64,000 nt of DNA from Parcubacteria group bacterium Gr01-1014_31 (lineage in GTDB: Bacteria; Patescibacteriota; Patescibacteriia; Buchananbacterales; GWA2-38-13). The notes under the pieces are model-generated. The model was not told where the DNA came from. It saw nothing but the letters and a program-made list of their open reading frames with translations, and did not search any database. This document shows positions 5,024 through 59,135 of this stretch, piece after piece (position 1 is the first letter of the stretch; each line of letters opens with the position of its first letter). Made by a program: the position numbers and the translations under genes. The stretch is taken from positions 452,360 to 516,359 of the forward strand of contig VMFR01000001.1 in the NCBI GenBank assembly GCA_007376135.1. Direction: 5' to 3'.

Positions 5024-5054
5024 TTCCATGGCGGGGGCGGTAGGAATCGAAGTC
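5024..5054 (-). pseudogene. 31-nt exact duplicate of the tRNA-Trp 3' end (T-loop/acceptor + 6-nt trailer); tRNA fragment
   Basis: tttttccatggcgggggcggtaggaatcgaa is identical to 5226-5256. The upstream T-stem partner is not conserved (ACGAC vs CCTAC), so it is not a functional tRNA. Confidence 0.6.
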
Positions 5055-5202
5055 GTCGATCCAATAGATCTTCTCCTCATAGGGGCTTCCGCCCCTCTGG
5101 CGTTCGTCCCGCAATAGGCGGAACGAACGGTCACCCCCGGCAATGCGAGGGAGCTACGCTCCCCCGCCACCCCCCTCGTTCGATCCCTCAATTCTTTCAC
5201 GC

Positions 5203-5234: not shown

Positions 5235-5308
5235 TGGCGGGGGCGGTAGGAATCGAACCCACGCAAACGGTTTTGGAGACCGCTGTACTACCATTATACG
5301 ACGCCCCC
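5235..5308 (-). tRNA. trnW: tRNA-Trp (anticodon CCA)
   Basis: Hand-folded. Acceptor GGGGGCG/CGCCCCC, D-stem GTAT/GTAC, anticodon stem GCGGT/ACCGT, loop CUCCAAA, T-arm GTGGG-TTCGATT-CCTAC, discriminator G, CCA encoded. Resembles E. coli tRNA-Trp. Confidence 0.85.
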
Positions 5309-5744: not shown

Positions 5745-5987
5745 TTAACCATGAACCGTCCTCCGGAATGCCTCGCCGCCCTTATAACTCTTTAACTGCA
5801 TTTCGCGACGGTACGCTGCGGCTTTTGTTTCAAAGAATTCCTTGTAGACCATGATCCACGGTCGCCAAGCCTTGGTCGACCGCACCTCGCCGCAGTTATG
5901 CTGACTGAGGCGTGTCCGCCAGTCTGCGGCATGACCGATGTAATGCCGGCCATTCTGGGAACTCTGCAACACATATACCCAGCTCAT
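5745..5987 (-). CDS. GIY-YIG nuclease family protein (UPF0213/YhbQ-like, stand-alone URI domain)
   Basis: MSWVYVLQSSQNGRHYIGHAADWRTRLSQHNCGE...WRPWIMVYKEFFETKAAAYRREMQLKSYKG matches the GIY-YIG core. GAGGGG Shine-Dalgarno sequence lies 6 nt upstream of the ATG. Confidence 0.7.
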   Translation of the reverse strand: MSWVYVLQSSQNGRHYIGHAADWRTRLSQHNCGEVRSTKAWRPWIMVYKEFFETKAAAYRREMQLKSYKGGEAFRRTVHG

Positions 5988-6078: not shown

Positions 6079-6099
6079 GACCGCTCTGCCACCTGCCCA
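6079..6099 (-). pseudogene. 21-nt exact duplicate of the tRNA-Tyr 5' end (acceptor + D-stem); tRNA fragment
   Basis: gaccgctctgccacctgccca is identical to 5722-5742. Downstream sequence diverges into GC hairpins, so there is no complete cloverleaf. Confidence 0.6.
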
Positions 6100-6165
6100 C
6101 GGCGTGTGGTGGTAAAAGTACAGCGTCGGAGGGTTCCCCTCCGCCACTCGACTGAAGCCGTTGGT

Positions 6166-6220
6166 CGGATCTGAACCGGCGACCTACTCCTTACCCATAC
6201 TAGCACACCCCCCTGCCATC
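6166..6220 (-). pseudogene. degenerate copy of the 3' half of tRNA-Thr(GGT)
   Basis: About 45 nt matches tRNA-Thr(GGT) from the anticodon loop to the acceptor with 3-4 substitutions (TTCGAAT->TTCAGAT, GTCGG->GCCGG). The 5' half is unrelated. Confidence 0.5.
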
Positions 6221-6225
6221 GCCTT

Positions 6226-6298
6226 AGCCGTTGGTCGGATTCGAACCGACGACCTACTCCTTACCATGGAGTTGCTCTACCAACTGAGCTACAACGGC
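6226..6298 (-). tRNA. tRNA-Thr (anticodon GGT)
   Basis: Acceptor GCCGTTG/CAACGGC, D-arm AGCTCAGTTGGTAGAGC, anticodon stem ACTCC/GGAGT with loop ATGGTAA, T-arm GTCGG-TTCGAAT-CCGAC. Confidence 0.85.
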
Positions 6299-6305
6299 TT
6301 AGGTA

Positions 6306-6376
6306 ATGGCAGGGAGAGTTGTCTCCCTGCGGGAGATCACCCGAAGGGTGACTCTGCCAGCTGAGCTCCAACGGCA
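6306..6376 (-). ncRNA. tRNA-Thr 5'-half-like sequence fused to a GC-rich multi-hairpin element with mutually exclusive folds
   Basis: Minus strand starts GCCGTTGGAGCTCAGCTGGCAGAG (21/24 nt match to the tRNA-Thr 5' end), then CACCC-UUCG-GGUGA (UUCG tetraloop hairpin) and UCUCCC-GCA-GGGAGA. On the plus strand there is an alternative 9-bp hairpin GCAGGGAGA-GTTG-TCTCCCTGC. Confidence 0.35.
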
Positions 6377-6419: not shown

Positions 6420-7256
6420 TTAGCGGAGCTCATCGATCTGCTGGCGCAAATCCTGGAGCTTGGCATTGTCCGGGTCGGCTGCCTTCAGCGCCTGCCAGGT
6501 CTTGTCGGCCAACGATCGGTCTTTCACTAGAATACTGATTTTTAGCAAAAAGTCAAGCATTCGCGGGTTGTCCGCATCGGCCGCCACGGCCTTCCTTGCA
6601 TTCTGCAGCGCCTGCGCCAGCTGCCCCAGTTCCTGGAACACCATGGCGAGATTCTGGTAGCACGCGGCCAGGCGCTGGGCCTGTCCCGCCTCCTTGGGCT
6701 GTACGGCCGCCAGGCGGCTGGCGCCGCGGCGCAGAAGTTTAACCAGGTAGGTGAACACCTCGCGCGCCTTGGCGAATTCCTTGGTCTCCAGATAAAGGTC
6801 GCCCAGCATTTCGTAGGCAGCAACATGGTGCTGGTTCAAGCCGATGGCCTTGATCAGGTGGTCTTCCGCCGCCGCGAAATCACCGCCTGAGCGCAGGCGC
6901 TGTGCATCCTGGATCAAGGCGGCAAGCGTACCGGTCAGGTCGCCGCTCGGCACCGGTTCGGGTTTGGGGCGCTGGTAACGCTGCTCCAGGTCCAATATCC
7001 GCCGGTACCTGCGCTTGACGAACCGCAGCAGGGCGGAAACGACCGGACGGCAAACGGCGGAAAGCCAGCGGCCAAACCCCTGCAACCGACGCCGCAGACG
7101 GTCGGCCAATAACCGCTGCTTCAGACGCAGTTCGCGTTCCGCCGGGATGGACGCGACATCCACACTCCTGGCCTGCGGGAGCTTGCGGCCCATGATCAAC
7201 AACACCACGGTCACGCTGACCAACAGCACGAAGATCGGAATGAGATCGTAGGCCAT
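6420..7256 (-). CDS. TPR repeat-containing membrane-anchored protein
   Basis: N-terminal TM helix. C-terminal half has TPR-like helical repeats (AYEMLGDLYLETKEFAKAREVF..., AACYQNLAMVFQELGQLAQALQNARKAV...). Confidence 0.5.
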   Translation of the reverse strand: MAYDLIPIFVLLVSVTVVLLIMGRKLPQARSVDVASIPAERELRLKQRLLADRLRRRLQGFGRWLSAVCRPVVSALLRFVKRRYRRILDLEQRYQRPKPEPVPSGDLTGTLAALIQDAQRLRSGGDFAAAEDHLIKAIGLNQHHVAAYEMLGDLYLETKEFAKAREVFTYLVKLLRRGASRLAAVQPKEAGQAQRLAACYQNLAMVFQELGQLAQALQNARKAVAADADNPRMLDFLLKISILVKDRSLADKTWQALKAADPDNAKLQDLRQQIDELR

Positions 7257-7315
7257 ACTTGCCGAAGTAACAAAATCGAGCGGCTCCCCTCCGCGCCGCC
7301 CCCAAGGGGCTTTCT

Positions 7316-8197
7316 CTAGCGGGATCTCGACACTGCCCGCCCGGCGCTGCCGAACACCTTTAATTTCCCTTCCACCACACGCTGCACGGCGAGCGTCGCC
7401 GGACCCAGGTAGGTACGAAGATCATACTGGCCGCGCTGCTTCCCCAGCGTGCGCCGCAACGACTGGGTAAACGCGATCCTCAACTCGGTATCCACGTTGA
7501 TGATGCGAATACCCCGCCGGACAGCGGCGCGGATCTGTACGGGCGCGACGCCCGATCCGCCGTGCAACACTAGGGGTACCTTGGCGACTTTAGCAATGGC
7601 CGAGATCCGCGGCAGGTCCAGCCGTTCACGGCCGCGGAACGCCCCGTGCAGGGTGCCCACCGACACCGCCAGTGTGTCCACGCCGGTCGCGCGCAGATAT
7701 TCGGCCACACCCGCGGGGTCGGTCAGATATTGGCGCGCTGCGGCAACGCCGCGCAATTTCGTCAGACCCTCCTTGCCGAAGATCACGCCCAGCTCGCCCT
7801 GCACCCACACCCCGGCCCGATGGGCGTAATCAACGGCCTGGTGGGTAGCGGCGATATTGTTCTCCAGCGGCTGCTCGCTGGCGTCGATATGCACGGAAGA
7901 AAACCCGGCATCCACGCACTCGCGTACCGCGGCGAAACTGCGGCCATGGTCGAAATGCAACGCTACCGGCACGTCCCCACCGACATGCCGAGAAACCGTC
8001 CGGATGACATCCGCGATCGGTTTGAGCTCGGCGTACTTGATGGTCTTTTCGGAGATCTGCACGATAACCGGCGACCGCAGATTGACGGCGGCGCGCACGA
8101 TCGCCAACGTCACCTCAAGGTTGACGGTATTGAACGCGCCCACGGCGTAGCGGCGCCGCACGGCGTCCTGCATGATGTCCTTAAGCGGTACCAGCAT
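7316..8197 (-). CDS. fbaA: class II fructose-1,6-bisphosphate aldolase
   Basis: Motifs VALHFDHG and LVLHGGSG, with GAFN at the N-terminus. Start trimmed to MLVPLKDIMQD (the ATG directly abuts an inverted-repeat element). Confidence 0.85.
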   Translation of the reverse strand: MLVPLKDIMQDAVRRRYAVGAFNTVNLEVTLAIVRAAVNLRSPVIVQISEKTIKYAELKPIADVIRTVSRHVGGDVPVALHFDHGRSFAAVRECVDAGFSSVHIDASEQPLENNIAATHQAVDYAHRAGVWVQGELGVIFGKEGLTKLRGVAAARQYLTDPAGVAEYLRATGVDTLAVSVGTLHGAFRGRERLDLPRISAIAKVAKVPLVLHGGSGVAPVQIRAAVRRGIRIINVDTELRIAFTQSLRRTLGKQRGQYDLRTYLGPATLAVQRVVEGKLKVFGSAGRAVSRSR

Positions 8198-20082: not shown

Positions 20083-20193
20083 TATACCCGGTAGGACAAC
20101 TTCCGGGAATATCACTGTACCGGACAACGATGCACACACTCCCCCCGACGACCGAACGGAGCAGTCACCCGGCAGGTTGTACTACCGGGTATA
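20083..20193. repeat. IR-bracketed intergenic element E2 (TIRs TATACCCGGTAGGACAAC / GTTGTACTACCGGGTATA)
   Basis: 17/18-bp inverted repeats 8 nt upstream of the GT39-like ATG. Same terminal inverted repeat family as E1 and E3. Confidence 0.5.
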
Positions 20194-39313: not shown

Positions 39314-40549
39314 CTATTCGTAGCGCAACGCTTCGATGGGGTTTTTGCGCGCAGCCTGCGACGCCGGGTACAAGCCGAACACCACGCCCACCAGCGTTGA
39401 GACTCCGACGCCCAGCATCACCGCCGAGAGCGGCAGCGCGTAGCCCCACTGCAAGCCCATGGCATACCGCAATACCAGCGACGCGATCCCGGAAAACATT
39501 GCGCCTAAAGCGATGCCGACCACCCCGCCGGTCCCCGTCAGCAGGATGGATTCAAGCAGGAACTGCTGCATGATGTCGCCGCCCGTCGCGCCCACGGCCT
39601 TGCGCAGCCCGATCTCGCGCGTGCGTTCGGTCACGGCCACCAGCATGATGTTCATGATGCCAATACCGCCCACCACCAGCGAGATGGCGGCGACCGACGT
39701 GAGCAGCACCGTCAGGATGGTGGACACGATGCCGATGGACGCCATGGCGTCGGCTTGCGTCGTGACGTGGAAATCGTCCTTGTCCGGGTCGGTAATGTTG
39801 TGCGATTCGCGCAGCGTCAGCTCGATATCGCGGGCCACGCGCGGCACTAAGGCCTCGGTCTGCGCCTGCACCATGATGGCATGGAAATGGTTGATGCCCA
39901 GCAGGTACTCCTGCGCCGTCGTGTACGGCACGAACGCCATCTGGTCGATGTCGATGAGACCGGCGCCCTTTTCCTTGAGCACGCCCACAACCCGGAAGGT
40001 CTTGCCCTTGATCTTCACCTTCTGGCCGACCGCGGCATCCGCACCGAACAGCTCCTCCCCCACCTTCGTGCCGATGACCACGACGCTGGCGCGCCGCCGC
40101 ACATCCTCATCCGTGAAGAAACTGCCCTCCGCGACCGCCAAATTCATGATCTCGCTGATGAACGGGTCGGTGCCGCGCATCGTGATGCGCTTGGTCTCGG
40201 TGCCGTAGACAATGGTCGCGGCGACCGCCACGGCCGGCGAAACGCGCGCGACCCCCTGGACATTGGCCGGCTGGAGGATGGCCGCAACGTCGCGCGGCTT
40301 GAGCGAGTCCGTGAAGATCTCGACGAAATCCGACGGCCCTTTCGGCTGGCGGCCCGGCTCCACGATAATGGTGCGTGATCCCAGGCCGCGGATCTGATCC
40401 AAGATGAGCTGCTCGGCGCCCTCGCCCACCGACATGACCAAAATGATGGCGGTGATGCCGATGACGATACCCAGAATCGTCAGCGCGGAACGCGACTTGT
40501 TGGCACGCAGGCCCCGGAAGGCGGTTTTCAGCGTAAAGCGCAGTCGCAT
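39314..40549 (-). CDS. ABC transporter permease (FtsX/MacB family)
   Basis: N-terminal TM helix, a large periplasmic domain, and three C-terminal TM helices typical of MacB/LolCE permeases. Confidence 0.75.
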   Translation of the reverse strand: MRLRFTLKTAFRGLRANKSRSALTILGIVIGITAIILVMSVGEGAEQLILDQIRGLGSRTIIVEPGRQPKGPSDFVEIFTDSLKPRDVAAILQPANVQGVARVSPAVAVAATIVYGTETKRITMRGTDPFISEIMNLAVAEGSFFTDEDVRRRASVVVIGTKVGEELFGADAAVGQKVKIKGKTFRVVGVLKEKGAGLIDIDQMAFVPYTTAQEYLLGINHFHAIMVQAQTEALVPRVARDIELTLRESHNITDPDKDDFHVTTQADAMASIGIVSTILTVLLTSVAAISLVVGGIGIMNIMLVAVTERTREIGLRKAVGATGGDIMQQFLLESILLTGTGGVVGIALGAMFSGIASLVLRYAMGLQWGYALPLSAVMLGVGVSTLVGVVFGLYPASQAARKNPIEALRYE

Positions 40550-40784
40550 ACCCAGTAGGACAACTTTGAAAAGATACTATTTTAAAACCGCGAAAAAAGT
40601 GGTGATCGCTGTCATTGCGAGGAGTCCCGAGCCAGTCGAGGGACAACGTGGCGATCTCGTTTTTGGTTTGACACCGAGATTGCTTCGTTTCACTCGCAAT
40701 GACGAAAGGTACCGCTCACCGCCCTGGAGGCATTGCAGAATATGGACGTAGTGGGATTCTGTCGAAGTTGTCCTACTGGGCATA
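40547..40784. repeat. IR-bracketed intergenic element E3 (TIRs CATACCCAGTAGGACAAC / GTTGTCCTACTGGGCATA)
   Basis: Perfect 15-bp inverted repeats (17 including flanks) bracket about 200 bp between the ABC ATPase stop and the permease ATG. The left repeat contains the permease start codon. Confidence 0.55.
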
Positions 40785-41524: not shown

Positions 41525-43171
41525 TTACGGTTTTGGGACTTCGATAAGCACGCGGTCCCCCTCACTCAATCCGGTCGTGATCTCGATATTACCGTCCGAA
41601 CCGCGCAGGCCGACTCCCACCGTCACCTCCACCACTTCATTGCCGCCGGTCTGAGAGCGCAATTTGCGGACGAATTTATCGCCATTGCGGCCGAACACCG
41701 CCCGCAGTGGGACCACGATGACGTTGGTGCGTTCCGCGGCCCGGATGTCCAGGTCGGCAGTCATGCCCGAGCGGATGCGTTCGTCCGGCTGGTCAAATAG
41801 AACGGTCACGACGTAGGTCGGCACCCCCTCCACCACCGTTTCCGCCGGGTCGATCTTTGCCACATGCGTACGAAACGTCACATCGTTGCCGTAGGCGTCC
41901 AGCGTGGCGACGCCGGCATCGCCGATCTTGAGCTTGGCGATATCCGCTTCCGGGACGTTGGCCTCGATCTCATAGCCCGCATCGGAAATGATGGACACGA
42001 GCGACACATTGGCGGCGATGATCTCGCCGACCTCAAGGTCGACTTTGGTGACCACGCCATCGAACGGCGAGCGCAACACGGCCTTATCCAGCTGCGCGCG
42101 GATGTTGGCGGCGCTGGCTTCCATCTGCCGGATCTGGGCCAGCTGGCCGGCAAGCGTCGCCTCGGCCTGGGCGACCAACGCCTCCTGCGCGGCCACCTGC
42201 GAGGACGTACTGCCCGCCTGCTTGAGCTTGAGCTCCTCCTCCACGCGGGCGACGATGCGCTGATTGGCGGAAATGTCCTGCTGCAGATCGGCGACCGCTG
42301 CCAGCTGCGCCGCAATGTTCACCCGCGCGGTATTGACATCATCGCGACGGGTATCCAGCGCGTCGTCCTGGAGCGAGCACTCGGTCACCAGCGCCTGGTT
42401 AAGCCGATCAAGGAACTGCTGGTACAGCATGAGCTCCTTGGCGGCATCGCTCAACGCCAGATCCAGCACGTCTCGCGCCGTCCCCGCCCCGATCGCCGTC
42501 AAAGAGGTCTGCCACGCCTGGAGCGAACGCTCGCTGGAAGCGCGCAGAAAGGTCACATCATTCTCCAGCGGATCGTTGCAGGCCCGGAACAACAGCAAAT
42601 AGCCACTCGAAAGGTTGCCGGAGAACAGCGCGGTGGTCTTGACGCGCACGGCGTCATCGGCCTTGGTGGACGCGGTCCGCAGCGTATCCACGACATCCTT
42701 GTAGGCATTCGCGAGATCCTGCTGAGCCGTGTCCAACTCCGCCTGCTTGACGGCAATCTCCTCCGGCCGGGTGCCGCGCCGCACCTCATCCAATCTGGCT
42801 TGCTGGTTGCGCAGAGCGGCCGCATACTGGTCCGATTGCGCTTTCGCGGAATCAACCCTCGCCAGCGCCTCGCTCAATTGCGCGACCAGATCCGCGCTGT
42901 TGAGGCCGGCGAGCAGCGCGCCCTTGTTGACCCGATCGCCGACGGCGACGGGGATGACGGCAACCCTTCCACTCCGCTCAAACGCCAGGTCCACCGCGTG
43001 GGTCGGCTTGACGCGACCGGTGACGCTGACCTCTTGCACCAGATCGGCGCGAACGGCGGTCGCCGTTTCGTACTCGACTGGCTTAGGCCGGGTGGCGGCG
43101 TACCCCAACGCGGCGGCAGCGATCACGATCGTCCCTGCGATCCCCACGGTTACTTTCGTGCGCGTGCGCAT
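41525..43171 (-). CDS. efflux transporter periplasmic adaptor (HlyD/MacA-like, long coiled-coil)
   Basis: N-terminal TM helix, a long Ala/Gln/Leu-rich coiled coil, and a C-terminal beta-barrel/MP domain. Confidence 0.55.
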   Translation of the reverse strand: MRTRTKVTVGIAGTIVIAAAALGYAATRPKPVEYETATAVRADLVQEVSVTGRVKPTHAVDLAFERSGRVAVIPVAVGDRVNKGALLAGLNSADLVAQLSEALARVDSAKAQSDQYAAALRNQQARLDEVRRGTRPEEIAVKQAELDTAQQDLANAYKDVVDTLRTASTKADDAVRVKTTALFSGNLSSGYLLLFRACNDPLENDVTFLRASSERSLQAWQTSLTAIGAGTARDVLDLALSDAAKELMLYQQFLDRLNQALVTECSLQDDALDTRRDDVNTARVNIAAQLAAVADLQQDISANQRIVARVEEELKLKQAGSTSSQVAAQEALVAQAEATLAGQLAQIRQMEASAANIRAQLDKAVLRSPFDGVVTKVDLEVGEIIAANVSLVSIISDAGYEIEANVPEADIAKLKIGDAGVATLDAYGNDVTFRTHVAKIDPAETVVEGVPTYVVTVLFDQPDERIRSGMTADLDIRAAERTNVIVVPLRAVFGRNGDKFVRKLRSQTGGNEVVEVTVGVGLRGSDGNIEITTGLSEGDRVLIEVPKP

Positions 43172-43258
43172 ACGTGGTAAATGAAAGCGCTATGAATCAA
43201 ATCGTAGTGATGCGGAACTCACCCATCTGGTTCACCCGCCCTTTTTCGGGGTGCGGGC

Positions 43259-43358
43259 CCCGTTAGAAAATTACTGTTCCGCTGGTCAAACGCTCCAACG
43301 ATTTCCAGCATCCAGAAATATTACAGAACACATTATTCGCAAAGTTTTCTAACGGGGC
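43259..43358. mobile_element. MITE-like 100-bp element with perfect 13-bp terminal inverted repeats (CCCCGTTAGAAAA) and a 4-bp CGGG target duplication
   Basis: Removing the element and one CGGG restores TCGGGGTGCGGGGAGTCGAACC, identical to the 3' end of the adjacent tRNA-Pro. The element interior is AT-rich. Confidence 0.5.
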
Positions 43359-43407
43359 GGGGAGTCGAACCGCCGCCGCATGCACCCTTCACCCCACACC
43401 TTTCCTC
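43359..43407 (-). pseudogene. degenerate tRNA-Pro-like copy (acceptor/T-arm retained, D/anticodon region deleted), disrupted by the MITE-like element
   Basis: Shares GGGGAGTCGAACC and GGGTGCATG with tRNA-Pro. The T-stem is mispaired (GGCGG vs CCCCG). Confidence 0.45.
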
Positions 43408-43478
43408 TCGGGGTGCGGGGAGTCGAACCCCGTCTCCATGCACCCCATGCACGTGTACTGCCGGTATACTACACCCCG
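43408..43478 (-). tRNA. tRNA-Pro (anticodon GGG)
   Basis: Acceptor CGGGGTG/CACCCCG, D-arm GTAT-ACCGGCA-GTAC, anticodon stem CGTGC/GCATG with loop ATGGGGT (G37), T-arm CGGGG-TTCGACT-CCCCG, discriminator A. Confidence 0.8.
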
Positions 43479-43648
43479 AAAGGAAAGGTGTGGGGCAATC
43501 GCACGTGGACTACCACTACCCCATACCCCGAAAAAAGGCGGGTGAAAAACGAACTTGCCCGCGATGCCGCACACCTGTGAAGTAAAAACGTGAAATGTAC
43601 GAATACCCACTCTACCGCATCGGTGCGCTCCCGGCAAGGCGTCCGGCG

Positions 43649-44272
43649 TCACCCGAGCAGCGCCGCCCGCAACGGTGCCCCATCCAACCCCATAAACTTC
43701 AACGGCAGCCCGATGAACACGTAACGCCCGGGCCGAACTTTTGACAAGTCCAATCCCTCCACGATGGGAATGCCGCGTGAAAGCAGGGCCGTATGCGGCC
43801 GGTTGTCAGGACTGCCGCGCTGCTTGACCGAGAGCGAATCAATGCCGACCAGACTGACGCGCCGCTGCGCGAGCCAAGCAGCCGCCTCCCCAGTAAGCCA
43901 GACATAATCGTCCCACCAGCGGGAAAACCCACGACGCGAATTGCGCGTTTTCAAAAGAACGCGCTCCCCCGCCCGGATACGGTATCCGGCAAGGTCGGTG
44001 GTCGTAATGGCGCCAGCCAAACGAGTCAAATCCAGCACGCGGCACGGCCCGTAGAATGCTTGCAGCGGTAAGCGGTCCACGCCGCCGCCATCCCGGAACG
44101 CATGACGCGGCGCGTCCACGTGCGTGCCCGTGTGCGATCCAAGTACTACCTCCGAATGCCAAGAGGTTTTGCCGCGCAGCGTGCGAATTTTCACGCGCGG
44201 GTTGCCGGGGTACACCACGGTCTTGCCGTGCAGCGGGAGTGAAATATCAACTAGGCGTAATCGTCGAGCCAT
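43649..44272 (-). CDS. cyclase family protein (kynurenine formamidase-like fold)
   Basis: HTGTHVDAPRH motif. Start trimmed to MARRLRLVDISL. Confidence 0.6.
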   Translation of the reverse strand: MARRLRLVDISLPLHGKTVVYPGNPRVKIRTLRGKTSWHSEVVLGSHTGTHVDAPRHAFRDGGGVDRLPLQAFYGPCRVLDLTRLAGAITTTDLAGYRIRAGERVLLKTRNSRRGFSRWWDDYVWLTGEAAAWLAQRRVSLVGIDSLSVKQRGSPDNRPHTALLSRGIPIVEGLDLSKVRPGRYVFIGLPLKFMGLDGAPLRAALLG

Positions 44273-44274
44273 AG

Positions 44275-45219
44275 CTAGAGGGTCGTAATTGGTCGCGACT
44301 GGACAATGAAAAATTTCTTCTTCGCGAACGCCCACTCGATATCCTGCGGCTTACTGTAATGACGCTCAATGTCAGTGCAGAGCTTCGCCAGTTCAACGAT
44401 CTGGCGGCCGGTCAATTTTTGCACCTCTCGTTTCTCTGCGGACACGGACCGCCACACGTTGCCGCCGCTAGATTTTCGTACCAGCATTTTTTCCTGCGCG
44501 GCAATGTTGATGTCGACCAGATGGAGGTCGCGCTTATCGATGACGTAGCTGTCGGGCGTGATCTGGCCGGAAACGATAGCTTCGCCCAGGCCGAACCCGG
44601 CCTCAATGATCATCTGGTTATAGTCCTTGGTCACCGGATGCACGGTGAAGGCGATGCCAGCAACCTCGGCCTGGATCATCTGCTGCACCACCACCGCGAC
44701 CGACACTTTTGACCGTCTCATTCCTTTCTCGTTGCGGTAAACAATGGCCCGCGGCGTGAACAGTGACGACCAGCACTTCTTGACATTGCCGAGCAAAATC
44801 TTTGCCGTTGTGTTCAGATAGCTCTCTAATTCTCCCGCCCAAGAGGCAACCGAGGAATCTTCGGCGGTTGCCGAGCTTCGGACCGCGACCAGCGGGCTCT
44901 TGAGCTGGCGGAAGCGGCCCAGCACGGCCGCACTGAGATCCTTAGGAAACGCTGCGTCGTGGATAAGGTCGCGGATGATTACTGACGCCCGCTCAACGGA
45001 ATGGACGTCGCGATAGTTGACCTTAGCCAACGCGGCCCTAATCTCTTGGACCAAGTCAGCGCCCTTCAAAAACTGTTCAAACGCGGCTGCCGTGACCACA
45101 AAACCTGGCGGCACCGGAATGCCCGCGCGCGTCATTTCCCCCAACGATGCCCCCTTGCCGCCGGCCAGATGCGCGTCGGTCTTTTTTAACTGTTCAAAAT
45201 CTAGGAGATAATCCACCAT
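44275..45219 (-). CDS. stand-alone PPDK_N-type ATP-grasp nucleotide-binding domain protein (PEP synthase / rifampin phosphotransferase N-terminal domain homolog)
   Basis: GGKGASLGEM, VPPGFVVT, VRSSATAEDS…SWAG, VAVVVQQMIQ, GFGLGEAIVSG, and QDIEWA. 314 aa, ending where a fused dikinase would continue. Confidence 0.75.
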   Translation of the reverse strand: MVDYLLDFEQLKKTDAHLAGGKGASLGEMTRAGIPVPPGFVVTAAAFEQFLKGADLVQEIRAALAKVNYRDVHSVERASVIIRDLIHDAAFPKDLSAAVLGRFRQLKSPLVAVRSSATAEDSSVASWAGELESYLNTTAKILLGNVKKCWSSLFTPRAIVYRNEKGMRRSKVSVAVVVQQMIQAEVAGIAFTVHPVTKDYNQMIIEAGFGLGEAIVSGQITPDSYVIDKRDLHLVDINIAAQEKMLVRKSSGGNVWRSVSAEKREVQKLTGRQIVELAKLCTDIERHYSKPQDIEWAFAKKKFFIVQSRPITTL

Positions 45220-57841: not shown

Positions 57842-58819
57842 TCAGGCGGAACGAATCTGGCCCTGGTAGCGCTGATATGCTTGTTTTTTGAGCAGAAGTC
57901 GTCGCGCCCTTGTTGGGCTATACGCACCTCTTTTTTTTAGTAAATTTATTACGCTATCTCTCCTTGAACGGCTTTTACTCCCCATCGCCAATTTATTTCT
58001 CCCTAATTTCAAGCCGAGATGCTCGGCCCCGCTAGCGTAGGTGCGTATTTTCGTTTTTGCAGGGTTTACTGGAAGTCTCTGATTATTATCAAAATCAGAA
58101 AGGATTTTTTCCACTATTTTTACGACTGCCGAAATTTTTTCCTGGCTCACTCTGCTTGCGCTGATACCTATGTCGTCTATAAAAATCGCCACTCGAGGAT
58201 CATATTTTTTAAGGAGCTTTTTTACTTCCCGATCAAGGTGAATAAAGGTATCTAAATTACACCACACGGCTAATCGAGTAGAGGTTGCGAAACCTCGAGC
58301 AAGAGTTTTTTCTGTAGACATAGAACCCTTTTGGCCAACGGGAACGCAACATAGACTGGCCAATAGCCGTGATGCTCGGGGGCTACAGCCGCATTTTCTA
58401 TAGAAGAAAAAAAATACTCTCTGTTCACGAATCTGTTCAAAAAAATGCGTGATGTCGAGACTAGCTAAAATCCTCCCTCTCTCTTGCCCCAGTAGACTAC
58501 GGGCTGCTTGTATATGACTTCTGCCTGTCATGCCGCCAAAAATATAATTGGGTACGAGACGATCATGAGGTGCAAGAACCTTCTTATCAATCCGTTCGAG
58601 AAGCACGCCCAATGGAGTGCGGGCCGCACTACGCACAAACTTTCCTCTGTTAGGTTGAGAATTCTCGCTATTATCGCGCCAGTAATAATCAAAGTTACGA
58701 ATCACATCATTAATGAGTGTCAGTGCCTGCGGATAAGGTAAGGCGCTATCGCTAATCGTTTTTGCCAACTCATTCTTGCTACCAATCCTCAATCGCGGGT
58801 ATCGCGGACGGCTAAACAT
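57842..58819 (-). CDS. reverse transcriptase (retron/defence-associated RT-like, 325 aa), AT-rich
   Basis: RT motifs: IFGGMTGRSHIQAARSLL (2a), LDITHFFEQI (3), CVPVGQKGSMS (4, LPQGxxxSP-like), RVAIFIDDIGIS (5, xxDD), and NPAKTKI (6). No maturase or endonuclease domain. Confidence 0.7.
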   Translation of the reverse strand: MFSRPRYPRLRIGSKNELAKTISDSALPYPQALTLINDVIRNFDYYWRDNSENSQPNRGKFVRSAARTPLGVLLERIDKKVLAPHDRLVPNYIFGGMTGRSHIQAARSLLGQERGRILASLDITHFFEQIREQRVFFFFYRKCGCSPRASRLLASLCCVPVGQKGSMSTEKTLARGFATSTRLAVWCNLDTFIHLDREVKKLLKKYDPRVAIFIDDIGISASRVSQEKISAVVKIVEKILSDFDNNQRLPVNPAKTKIRTYASGAEHLGLKLGRNKLAMGSKSRSRRDSVINLLKKRGAYSPTRARRLLLKKQAYQRYQGQIRSA

Positions 58820-59135
58820 AGCGCTTTAAATATTTTGCCCTCACATCGATCAGATACAGCTGTAGTTGACTACCAACGTCAATCAGCGATTTTTCTAGCT
58901 GGGATAATTTTTTTGTGGATGAGGGACTATCGAGCAACAAGAACGGCGTAATCGAACTGGGTTGTACACCCAATTTGTCAGCAAGTTTGATGATAAAATT
59001 TTTGGATACCTCTTTTTGACCCGATTCGATCATCGCAACAAGGACAGTTGATACACCTAAAACATTGGCAAATTCACTCTGCGTTAAATCACTTTCATCC
59101 CGAATTTTTTTTATCAACTCCGGTAGAGTATACAT
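58812..59135 (-). CDS. XRE-family helix-turn-helix protein
   Basis: LTQSEFANVLGVSTVLVAMIESGQK is the Cro/C1-type HTH. Overlaps the RT start by 8 nt. Confidence 0.7.
   Translation of the reverse strand: MYTLPELIKKIRDESDLTQSEFANVLGVSTVLVAMIESGQKEVSKNFIIKLADKLGVQPSSITPFLLLDSPSSTKKLSQLEKSLIDVGSQLQLYLIDVRAKYLKRYV

Follow-up and report, generated by a model that had tools for sequence, protein, structure and literature searches.

A probable stack of three nested small mobile elements at the tRNA-Pro(GGG) gene of a Parcubacteria genome

In Parcubacteria group bacterium Gr01-1014_31, the tRNA-Pro(GGG) gene lies inside a set of nested inverted repeats that is probably a stack of three small cut-and-paste elements of one superfamily. 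The locus was analysed within 64,000 nucleotides of contig VMFR01000001.1 (assembly GCA_007376135.1, positions 452,360 to 516,359), here called the window, whose own numbering is used throughout. One of the three is a 100-bp non-coding element (43258-43357) that is, by its structure, a miniature inverted-repeat transposable element (MITE): it is short, has terminal inverted repeats (TIRs), is flanked by a target duplication, and has an empty counterpart site in a relative. The other two are units that each hold a tRNA-Pro gene, and members of the superfamily start with CCC and end with GGG, have arms of about 13 bp, cut their target with a 4-bp stagger and are about 100 bp long. There are good grounds for confidence in this structural reading of the locus. 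The family of the 100-bp element is widespread in uncultured bacteria and, as far as could be found, apparently undescribed, and comparison of its copies shows DNA insertions made with a 4-bp staggered cut, which are mobile on the evolutionary scale and tolerate almost any interior of about 75 bp. More tentatively, these elements may be carriers of small RNA genes, about 100 bp long and spread across phyla, the tRNA-loaded ones being directed to position 35/36 of the cognate tRNA and replacing it with a foreign allele that the cell cannot lose.

The 100-bp element is bounded by the arms CCCCGTTAGAAAA (43258-43270) and TTTTCTAACGGGG (43345-43357), which are complementary at 13 of 13 positions, or over 14 bp when the flanking G/C is counted in a self-comparison of the locus, and which enclose a 74-bp AT-rich interior. 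Its GC content is 0.45, compared with about 0.65-0.70 for the flanking genes, and it holds no open reading frame (ORF) of 80 or more amino acids. A copy of CGGG stands at either side (43254-43257 and 43358-43361) as the 4-bp target duplication. When the element and one CGGG are excised in silico, ...GGTTCGACTCCCCG meets CACCCCGA, and the joined sequence reproduces the live tRNA's 3' end: the terminal bases at 43246-43257 match the live 3' end at 43408-43419 in 12 of 12 positions, and 43354-43387 is 82% identical to 43412-43445 of the live gene. An earlier, sequence-only reading of this DNA had described an AT-rich MITE-like element of 100 bp with perfect 13-bp TIRs, a CGGG direct repeat, and an exact restoration of the tRNA 3' end upon removal, all of which was borne out by the arm complementarity, the GC content and the excision. 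In an Rfam search of 42500-44500 with E up to 10, tRNA is the sole credible match and no family corresponds to the element; weak matches to mascRNA, SpF41, permuted tmRNA and others in that range were dismissed as tRNA-like noise. Promoter and terminator prediction over 43100-43700 returned none. Over 17,277 bp spanning the locus, the sequence agrees at 100% with a separate Logan assembly of run SRR8863434, whose reads may overlap those behind the metagenome-assembled genome (MAG).

The tRNA gene severed by this element is an outer, dead tRNA-Pro, which surrounds the live gene on the same (minus) strand. The live tRNA-Pro(GGG) (43407-43479, detected by ARAGORN and by the Rfam tRNA model at 47.6 bits, threshold 29) is the cargo of a middle, 104-bp unit whose arms, CCCCACACCTTTCC on the tRNA 3' side (43392-43405) and GGAAAGGTGTGGGG on the 5' side (43482-43495), both as read on the plus strand, form a perfect 14-bp inverted repeat. 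The 5' half of the dead gene, CGGGGTATGGGGTAGTGGTAGTCCACGTGCGATTG (43496-43530), comprises the acceptor strand, the D arm, the anticodon stem and the loop bases ATTG, and 43501-43533 is 76% identical to 43449-43481 of the live tRNA. Its 3' half begins with the loop bases GGGT, the anticodon stem and a degenerate T arm (43358-43387, 82% identical to the live tRNA) and finishes with the final 12 bases CCCGCACCCCGA (43246-43257). The older gene is therefore broken twice, after about position 35 of its anticodon loop by the live-tRNA unit and near its 3' end by the 100-bp element. The first junction reads ATTG / unit / TGAA / GGGT, in which TGAA (tRNA orientation, 43388-43391, minus strand) represents four extra bases between the middle unit and the remainder of the outer loop. 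Around the dead gene lies the outermost unit, with the flank word TTCA and the arm CCCGCCCTTTT(T) (43231-43245), which has the same CCCG start as the termini of the 100-bp element, and with the inverted-repeat partner AAAAAAGGCGGG followed by the flank word TGAA (43531-43546). Along the minus strand, the order is TTCA, CCCGCCTTTTTT, the 5' half CGGGGTATGGGGTAGTGGTAGTCCACGTGCGATTG, CCCCACACCTTTCC, the live tRNA-Pro(GGG), GGAAAGGTGTGGGG and TGAA, and then the 3' half GGGTGCATGC...GGTTCGACTCCCCG, the 100-bp element, CCCGCACCCCGA, AAAAAGGGCGGG and a final TGAA. All three arm pairs start with CCC(C/G) and end with (C/G)GGG, and their flank words are TTCA/TGAA or CGGG.

A degenerate second copy of tRNA-Pro(GGG) had been reported at this locus from the sequence alone. 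The copy is real, but it is not adjacent to the live gene, its 5' half standing upstream and its 3' half downstream of it. The two inverted-repeat pairs, given as 19 and 14 bp, are likewise real but longer, namely 27 nt at 89% identity (43231-43257 with 43520-43546) and 24 nt at 96% (43392-43415 with 43472-43495). They are best read as the ends of two more units of this superfamily, nested here and each containing a tRNA-Pro, and neither as recombination products nor as the processing stem around pre-tRNA-Pro that had been suggested. With the long repeats understood in this manner, the insertion part of the proposed recurrent insertion and recombination was upheld and the recombination part was not.

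Folded as RNA, the minus strand adopts a fully nested structure of -171.6 kcal/mol (z = -8.66 relative to shuffles). This cloverleaf within a cloverleaf, together with that of a tRNA-Thr locus described below (z = -5.57), speaks for an event at the RNA level, in which the inverted repeats would be leader-trailer processing stems, the insertions would be intron-like and the outer tRNA would still be made, as in archaeal split or intron-containing tRNAs. In the same sense, the arm sequence changes between the window and a relative (L131) while pairing is retained, and the outer tRNAs of three nested loci elsewhere (L122, L129 and L037) are intact after removal of the unit plus four bases. Nevertheless, such an explanation is very improbable. 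The outer tRNA-Pro of the window is degenerate: its T stem is mismatched, the acceptor stem contains an A-C mismatch, and one extra base precedes the loop. With both insertions deleted it was not recognised as a tRNA by ARAGORN; outer copies are truncated in L121, L124 and L126, and in the outer loop of L122 the universally conserved U33 is replaced by C. Insertions at promoters and at the start codons of proteins, like direct duplications of 4 bp, are events of DNA. Moreover, the junction is an internal loop of 4 x 7-8 nt beside a 13-14-bp helix and not a bulge-helix-bulge, the host is a bacterium, there is no Rfam intron match, and the remaining tRNAs of the window have no paired leader and trailer.

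An even smaller probability is given to the half-copies being attachment-site leftovers of decayed integrase islands at tRNA-Pro, with the 100-bp piece as the last remnant. As Williams reportedly described in 2002, integrative elements commonly choose the anticodon or T loop of a tRNA gene, whose 3' part is left displaced, and a pattern of this kind is present at the tRNA-Trp of the window, where the 3' 23 nt are repeated 183 bp downstream. At tRNA-Pro, on the other hand, the displaced 5' half upstream would not be expected from such islands, the live tRNA is enclosed by a perfect 14-bp inverted repeat, and the 100-bp piece has a 13-bp one together with a 4-bp direct repeat. The same termini bound units of about 100 bp at many sites outside tRNA genes, and no integrase occurs in the neighbourhood.

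The neighbours of the locus encode a cyclase, phosphoenolpyruvate (PEP)-utilising enzymes, a HlyD-like protein, 100% identical to one recorded for Gr01-1014_31, and a MacB-type ABC exporter, and the order cyclase, tRNA-Pro(GGG), HlyD, ABC, MacB is kept in relatives, of which L131 and L132 have a near-identical tRNA at the syntenic place. In L132, whose neighbouring protein is 65% identical, the live tRNA is followed by an uninterrupted outer 3' half, GGTGCATGC...GACTCCCCG|CCCCCCGA, with no 100-bp element at the insertion point of the window. The empty-site comparison proposed by the sequence-only reading was in this way answered by a homologous pseudo-tRNA end that lacks the element, in a distant relative (65% protein identity) and not at strain level. 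The T arm of the L132 pseudo-half holds a different, 38-bp CCC...GGG hairpin; additional hairpins of this form are borne by dead tRNA halves in the window, L123 and L132. In L131 (57% identical), arms of the type borne by the middle unit of the window (type 2), CCCACACCTTTCT and AGGAAAGGTGTGGGG, stand about 390 bp apart around tRNA-Pro debris. Repeated insertion at tRNA-Pro is thus a property of the lineage.

The termini of the 100-bp element were also sought in one genome per species, as CCCGTTAGAAAA and TTTTCTAACGGG separated by 59-89 bases, a permitted element length of 83-113 bp; the family counts rest on the at least 120 stretches listed. At least 120 elements have the termini Y-CCCGTTAGAAAA...TTTTCTAACGGG-R, exact at both ends, where about 2 chance matches would be expected by our own estimate. 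A lack of further copies of the terminal repeat, named by the sequence-only reading as part of what would count against it, is not what is seen: at least 120 elements with these termini occur in other genomes, with perfect 4-bp duplications in 71 of 122. Their hosts are MAGs from many lineages of the Candidate Phyla Radiation (CPR)/Patescibacteria, Omnitrophota, Nitrospirota, Deltaproteobacteria/Desulfobacterota-type bacteria, Planctomycetota, WOR-3, Bacteroidota and others. A scan of viral contigs for the termini gave 0 matches, and hence there is no sign of a phage vector. Several other MAGs contain 2-3 copies per 8 kb. No description of the terminal sequence, of nested or disrupted tRNA genes of this kind, of MITEs with tRNA or of CPR tRNA introns was found in the literature.

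The 13th arm base is complementary (C/G or T/A) in 118 of 123 copies, and the commonest lengths are 100-103 bp. Directly outside the 13-bp arms, 72 of the 123 copies have a direct duplication of 4 bp without mismatch (the 71 of 122 given above being a second count), other duplication lengths reaching 0-2. The commonest form of the duplicated word is T-N-N-A (TTCA, TTTA, TGAA, TAAA and TCAA among others), about 80% of copies having T first and A last, with the middle bases free; C-N-N-G comes second, and the CGGG of the window fits this class. The flank pairs are non-identical in 51 of 122 copies, 12 of them sharing none of the four bases and 9 sharing one, and the mismatched words keep the TNNA form on both sides. 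These pairs are not decayed duplications, because the words are too different while the 24 terminal bases are perfect. The interiors are AT-rich (35% GC compared with 45% for the loci). Some variants show compensating changes in both arms, others are bare hairpins without an interior, and longer relatives measure 133-642 bp. An origin of the window locus without any mobile element, by local duplication, slippage and palindromes arisen by chance in a GC-rich spacer, would suit the single occurrence of the exact terminus in 64 kb; set against at least 120 terminus copies elsewhere with duplications, the empty site of L132 and the z of -8.66, this explanation deserves hardly any credence.

Two side observations concern particular members of the family. 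Copies in Omnitrophota and Paceibacterota MAGs (L012, L035, L040, L052, L055 and L077) form a subfamily of 89-90 bp with a conserved two-hairpin interior, in which compensating changes are seen by eye, for example CCCTGTGG..CTACAGGG as against CCCTCTGG..CCAGAGGG; this interior could be a small structured RNA carried as cargo. The copy of L021 (7540-7643, CCAG duplicated) lies in the 515-530 region of a 16S rRNA gene (7180-7660) and adjoins a group I intron (7217-7511, Rfam 62 bits), and the insertion opens with a second, variant left arm, CCCGTTTGAAAT, after the same GCCAGC.

A whole tRNA is present inside 2 of 123 copies, Thr-TGT in L037 and Ser-CGA in L084. A metagenome scan for the same termini enclosing a T-loop motif produced 9 matches with one complete tRNA each: Pro-CGG (two), Pro-TGG (two), Thr-CGT (two, on near-identical contigs), Thr-TGT, Val-GAC, and Ser-CGA, the last being the L084 locus. 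All 11 tRNA-carrying elements (9 distinct loci) interrupt, in the same orientation, the anticodon loop of a tRNA whose isotype matches that of their cargo, the inner and outer anticodons being identical wherever readable; no tRNA-carrying unit was seen outside a tRNA. The inner and outer genes are different alleles, each with its own paired stems, and for this reason the inner tRNA is not a local duplicate. The junction consists of loop bases 32-35, the unit, a 4-base word (TGAA, CAAG or TAAA) and bases 36-38; Thr-TGT differs in carrying its extra word (CCAG or CGCG) on the 5' side. In L037, L122 and L129, a valid tRNA that keeps the anticodon results when the unit and exactly four bases on one side are deleted; L084 requires five. 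The middle unit of the window has arms that differ from the termini of the 100-bp element, yet its junction is that of the tRNA-carrying units elsewhere. Its arm motif (type 2, CCCCACACC) recurs in L123 as 28-bp bare hairpins with TNNA-type flanks, one of which is within the T loop of an outer tRNA-Pro. As a side observation, the contig of L127, which has five tRNA genes including a nested tRNA-Pro, carries a group I intron at 2200-2456 (Rfam 95.7 bits).

Three accounts of these units were set aside. A standard duplication model does not describe the nested units, in which the native four bases occur once and a foreign 4-base word is on one side. The empty elements were not recognizable as decayed tRNA carriers, since relaxed ARAGORN runs and T-loop motifs gave no excess over shuffled and genomic controls. 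Selection alone was judged insufficient to account for the cognate nesting by a rough rate argument of our own.

For the window, a succession of three events can be proposed, whose order is deduced from the nesting. A tRNA-Pro gene with CCCGCCCTTTTT arms (43235-43542) would have been the original working gene. The 104-bp unit with CCCCACACCTTTCC arms and a complete tRNA-Pro(GGG) would then have entered its anticodon loop after about position 35, in the same orientation, whereupon the old gene would have died and the cargo tRNA taken over, probably through the promoter of the old gene. Finally, the cargo-less 100-bp element would have entered the dispensable 3' end of the dead gene, duplicating CGGG. 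If the middle bases are free, donor and target would bring different words, of which the donor's could persist on one flank; a one-sided donor word would explain both the 51 of 122 mismatched TNNA pairs and the single native loop bases accompanied by a foreign word.

More generally, the superfamily would prefer tRNA-shaped DNA as a target, where insertion would normally be lethal, and the insertions that survive would be those in which the target was already dead, the element end rebuilds the tRNA end, or a working cognate tRNA is carried in the transcribed orientation. This combination of a preference for tRNA-shaped DNA with a survival filter is offered tentatively, at less than even odds, as the explanation of the cognate nesting. 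The strict co-orientation fits it, given that the units have no room for a promoter and none was predicted. Units may reach their targets by recognition of tRNA-shaped DNA or by guidance from the cargo, and successive rounds would build tRNA loci arranged as Russian dolls.

An unlikely, though more serious, competitor is that a nested allele spreads by DNA uptake and homologous recombination, the outer halves acting as homology arms, perhaps with help from a tRNA-specific homing endonuclease such as a small GIY-YIG enzyme, and with the 100-bp element still being a transposon. It would account for the match of inner and outer genes at the isoacceptor level in nearly all cases, for the constant junction position, and for an outer 3' half that L132 shares with the window in spite of a mere 65% identity in the neighbouring protein; GIY-YIG genes are also found directly beside the nested tRNA-Ser of L084 and, in the window, between a tRNA-Tyr 5' fragment and tRNA-Tyr. 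Even so, an original insertion would still be required for each of at least six isoacceptors, the tRNA-Pro locus of the window has no GIY-YIG gene, and homology arms of about 35 bp are short. Loci with the same isoacceptor (L123 and L127, L037 and L125) differ strongly in their inner tRNAs and spacers while their termini are perfect, which is better fitted by independent recent insertions. Insertion of tRNA-loaded elements, followed by the survival filter, remains the preferred account.

Siting at tRNA DNA and at protein-coding genes can be considered under the same preference and filter. Cargo-less members are over-represented there: seven of 122 copies (L081 included) lie in or within 12 nt of tRNA or pseudo-tRNA DNA, where about 1.4 would be expected, an enrichment of about 5-fold. 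In two loci the element supplies the end of the tRNA: in L117 (2889-3056) tRNA-Pro(GGG) begins with the terminus end CGGGC, and the 5' bases that it originally had are still present, displaced, upstream of the element, while in L053 (3123-3293) tRNA-Ile(TAT) begins with the terminus end GGGC. Furthermore, 47 of 122 copies (about 39%) abut an outward ORF of at least 60 codons exactly on its start codon, compared with 2% of random positions; one example is the copy at the start of topoisomerase I in L001 (2073-2178). The start codon, ATG or GTG, is rebuilt from the 13th terminal base and TG, the first two bases of the flank word. As the 13th base and the duplicated TG rebuild ATG/GTG, these copies would be explained by the same survival logic. 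The right terminus also places a TAA 4 nt ahead of the rebuilt start and, in a second frame, a TGA overlapping it, and therefore translation begun at the old start would either terminate at the rebuilt one or continue into it.

As to what moves these elements, a DDE transposase of the piggyBac/IS1380 kind acting in trans is a candidate, somewhat short of an even chance, on the basis of end and duplication features. The terminal repeat of piggyBac is 13 bp, and ISEcp1 makes a 5-bp duplication. Mitra and colleagues are said to have found in 2008 that piggyBac keeps the four flank bases of the donor as 5' overhangs, which can be ligated into the target gap. The 100-bp element begins YCCCGTTAGAAAA, and ISEcp1, of the IS1380 family, begins CCTAGATTCTACGT. 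The piggyBac termini begin CCCTT, CCCTC or CCCAT, its duplication is a 4-bp TTAA with variants that include TAAA and TCAA, and IS1380 is its prokaryotic relative (PMC10813416); its excision is footprint-free and proceeds via hairpins at the transposon ends (PMC8151067). The elements resemble piggyBac and IS1380 in termini that start CC(C) with TAGA(A) a few bases on, in the size of the repeat, in the clean restoration of the target upon removal and, in part, in the 4-bp duplication, which is mostly of T-N-N-A form. They differ in that the middle two target bases are free and C-N-N-G is also used, that many copies have differing words and that no homologous transposase was found in the loci and the window. 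CCC...GGG inverted repeats 130-3500 bp apart in all loci likewise revealed no transposase-encoding full-length partner.

Several results weigh against the proposals above. No transposase stands beside the solo arms in L016, L082 and L120; no protein family recurs among the clustered ORFs of at least 150 aa from 129 loci; a tblastn search with the ISEcp1 transposase of plasmid pC15-1a over all loci and the window gave nothing significant (best E = 2); and the 26 window ORFs (of 54 with at least 150 aa) that were compared with Pfam or NCBIfam include no transposase family. MITEs normally descend from one autonomous element, and it is unusual for them that the interiors here are unrelated, 111 of 132 being singletons and that of the window having no relative among the 132. 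The exact terminus is present in a single copy in the 64-kb window. Enrichment at tRNA DNA is a matter of small numbers, the four adjacent copies alone giving p = 0.054. In L131, the live tRNA-Pro(GGG) is bracketed by another perfect 14-bp inverted repeat, ATCGAAAACACATT, which does not start with CCC, and this difference in arms means that some paired leaders and trailers cannot be assigned to the superfamily. The junction is always at 35/36, which the donor-word model leaves unexplained, and the side of the extra word is fixed for each tRNA type, where random segregation of a donor/target heteroduplex predicts both sides.

Two further elements occur in the window. A 103-bp element of the same superfamily (20087-20189), with termini CCCGGTAGGACAAC and TATA duplicated, is located 12 nt upstream of the start of a membrane-protein gene. 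An element of 230 bp (40551-40780) has perfect 14-bp termini, CCCAGTAGGACAAC, and duplicates CATA; it exactly fills the interval from the stop codon of an ABC ATPase gene to the start of the MacB-like gene (39314-40549, minus strand), and the CATA duplication rebuilds the ATG of the latter. A second nested locus is found at tRNA-Thr (6141-6375, minus strand), where the live tRNA-Thr(GGT) (6225-6299) is enclosed by the leader/trailer pair CCCTGCCAT / ATGGCAGGG (the fold with z = -5.57 mentioned above) and by the 5' piece (6352-6375) and 3' piece (6156-6195, 92.5% identical) of an older tRNA-Thr. In the older gene, which is flanked by paired sequences of its own, two small hairpins have been inserted behind the D arm, and decay has gone further than in the tRNA-Pro nest.

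Other tRNA loci of the window show different arrangements. A GIY-YIG nuclease gene of 80 aa (5745-5987, minus strand, Pfam E = 4.6e-15) ends 4 nt before tRNA-Tyr, and the first 20 nt of this tRNA are repeated 340 nt upstream (6079-6098), beyond the nuclease gene, as though the nuclease gene had entered tRNA-Tyr and the 5' end had been rebuilt. A comparable GIY-YIG gene in L084 ends shortly before the nested tRNA-Ser. For tRNA-Trp (5029-5059 and 5235-5308, minus strand), a segment made up of the gene's final 23 nt and 8 nt of trailer recurs exactly 183 bp downstream, and the two copies are followed by different terminator hairpins; this looks like the pattern of integration at the T loop with a rebuilt 3' end, an insertion distinct in kind from that at tRNA-Pro. 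A reverse transcriptase of 325 aa (57842-58819, minus strand) has weak NCBIfam matches to retron-type and group II intron-type enzymes, and a near-match to the element terminus, CCCAGCTAGAAAA (58891-58903), is found just upstream of its gene.

When compared with known systems, the family is closest in form to bacterial MITEs such as the Correia elements of Neisseria and RUP of Streptococcus, which are also short and non-coding, have TIRs and a short duplication, often lie at gene starts and have no transposase of their own. Unlike these, it is defined by its 13-bp termini only, with unrelated interiors, a length near 100 bp and a distribution over many phyla and not one genus; some members carry a complete tRNA gene, and no parent insertion sequence is known. 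A transposase-encoding full-length element with the same termini, which is a criterion for MITEs, was not found in the 129 loci and the window. REPIN/RAYT systems consist of two inverted REPs without duplication, in hundreds of copies with one RAYT gene, whereas here a duplication is present and the density in the window is low.

The tRNA-carrying members share with tRNA-targeting integrative elements the insertion at the anticodon or T loop, the supply of a working tRNA and the displaced tRNA fragment left behind, but they contain a whole tRNA instead of its 3' part, are about 105 bp long, have inverted and not direct repeats, displace both halves, and have no integrase near the locus. With the archaeal tRNA introns, split tRNAs and 'transposing' introns of Thermoproteales and Nanoarchaeum they have in common an interruption in the anticodon-loop region, a complementary leader and trailer of 12-14 nt and the involvement of several tRNA genes; they differ in being bacterial, in lacking a bulge-helix-bulge, in the position (35/36 instead of 37/38), in the decay of the host gene and in an insert that holds a second complete tRNA. 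The group I introns of bacterial tRNAs are also inserted in anticodon loops, and such introns are present in L021 (in the 16S gene) and on the L127 contig, although the units at issue here show no group I fold and no Rfam match in 42500-44500 at E = 10, and are built as ~100-bp units with a simple terminal helix and target duplications. The tRNA-carrying members thus share the defining features of neither tRNA-targeting integrative elements nor archaeal interrupted tRNAs, and their nesting rule could be the part of these findings that is new biology.

In the minimal genomes of CPR/Patescibacteria and other ultra-small bacteria, tRNA genes are present in single copy, and insertion into them should be lethal. 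Tiny elements evade this lethality when the target is dead, when the tRNA or the start codon is rebuilt by the element's end, or when they bring a replacement tRNA. The copies at start codons, about 39%, raise the question of how translation starts downstream of them. For genome annotation, tRNA finders report the inner gene only. The family also points to an unrecognised transposase; its apparent traits, namely defined short ends, a target of 4 bp and clean removal, are those to which piggyBac owes its use as a tool. If the proposal of tRNA carriers is true, it would provide a mechanism for horizontal replacement of tRNA genes and would account for the tRNA fragments scattered near tRNA genes. 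Such carriers would then represent both a new route of tRNA replacement and a new form of selfish 'addiction'.

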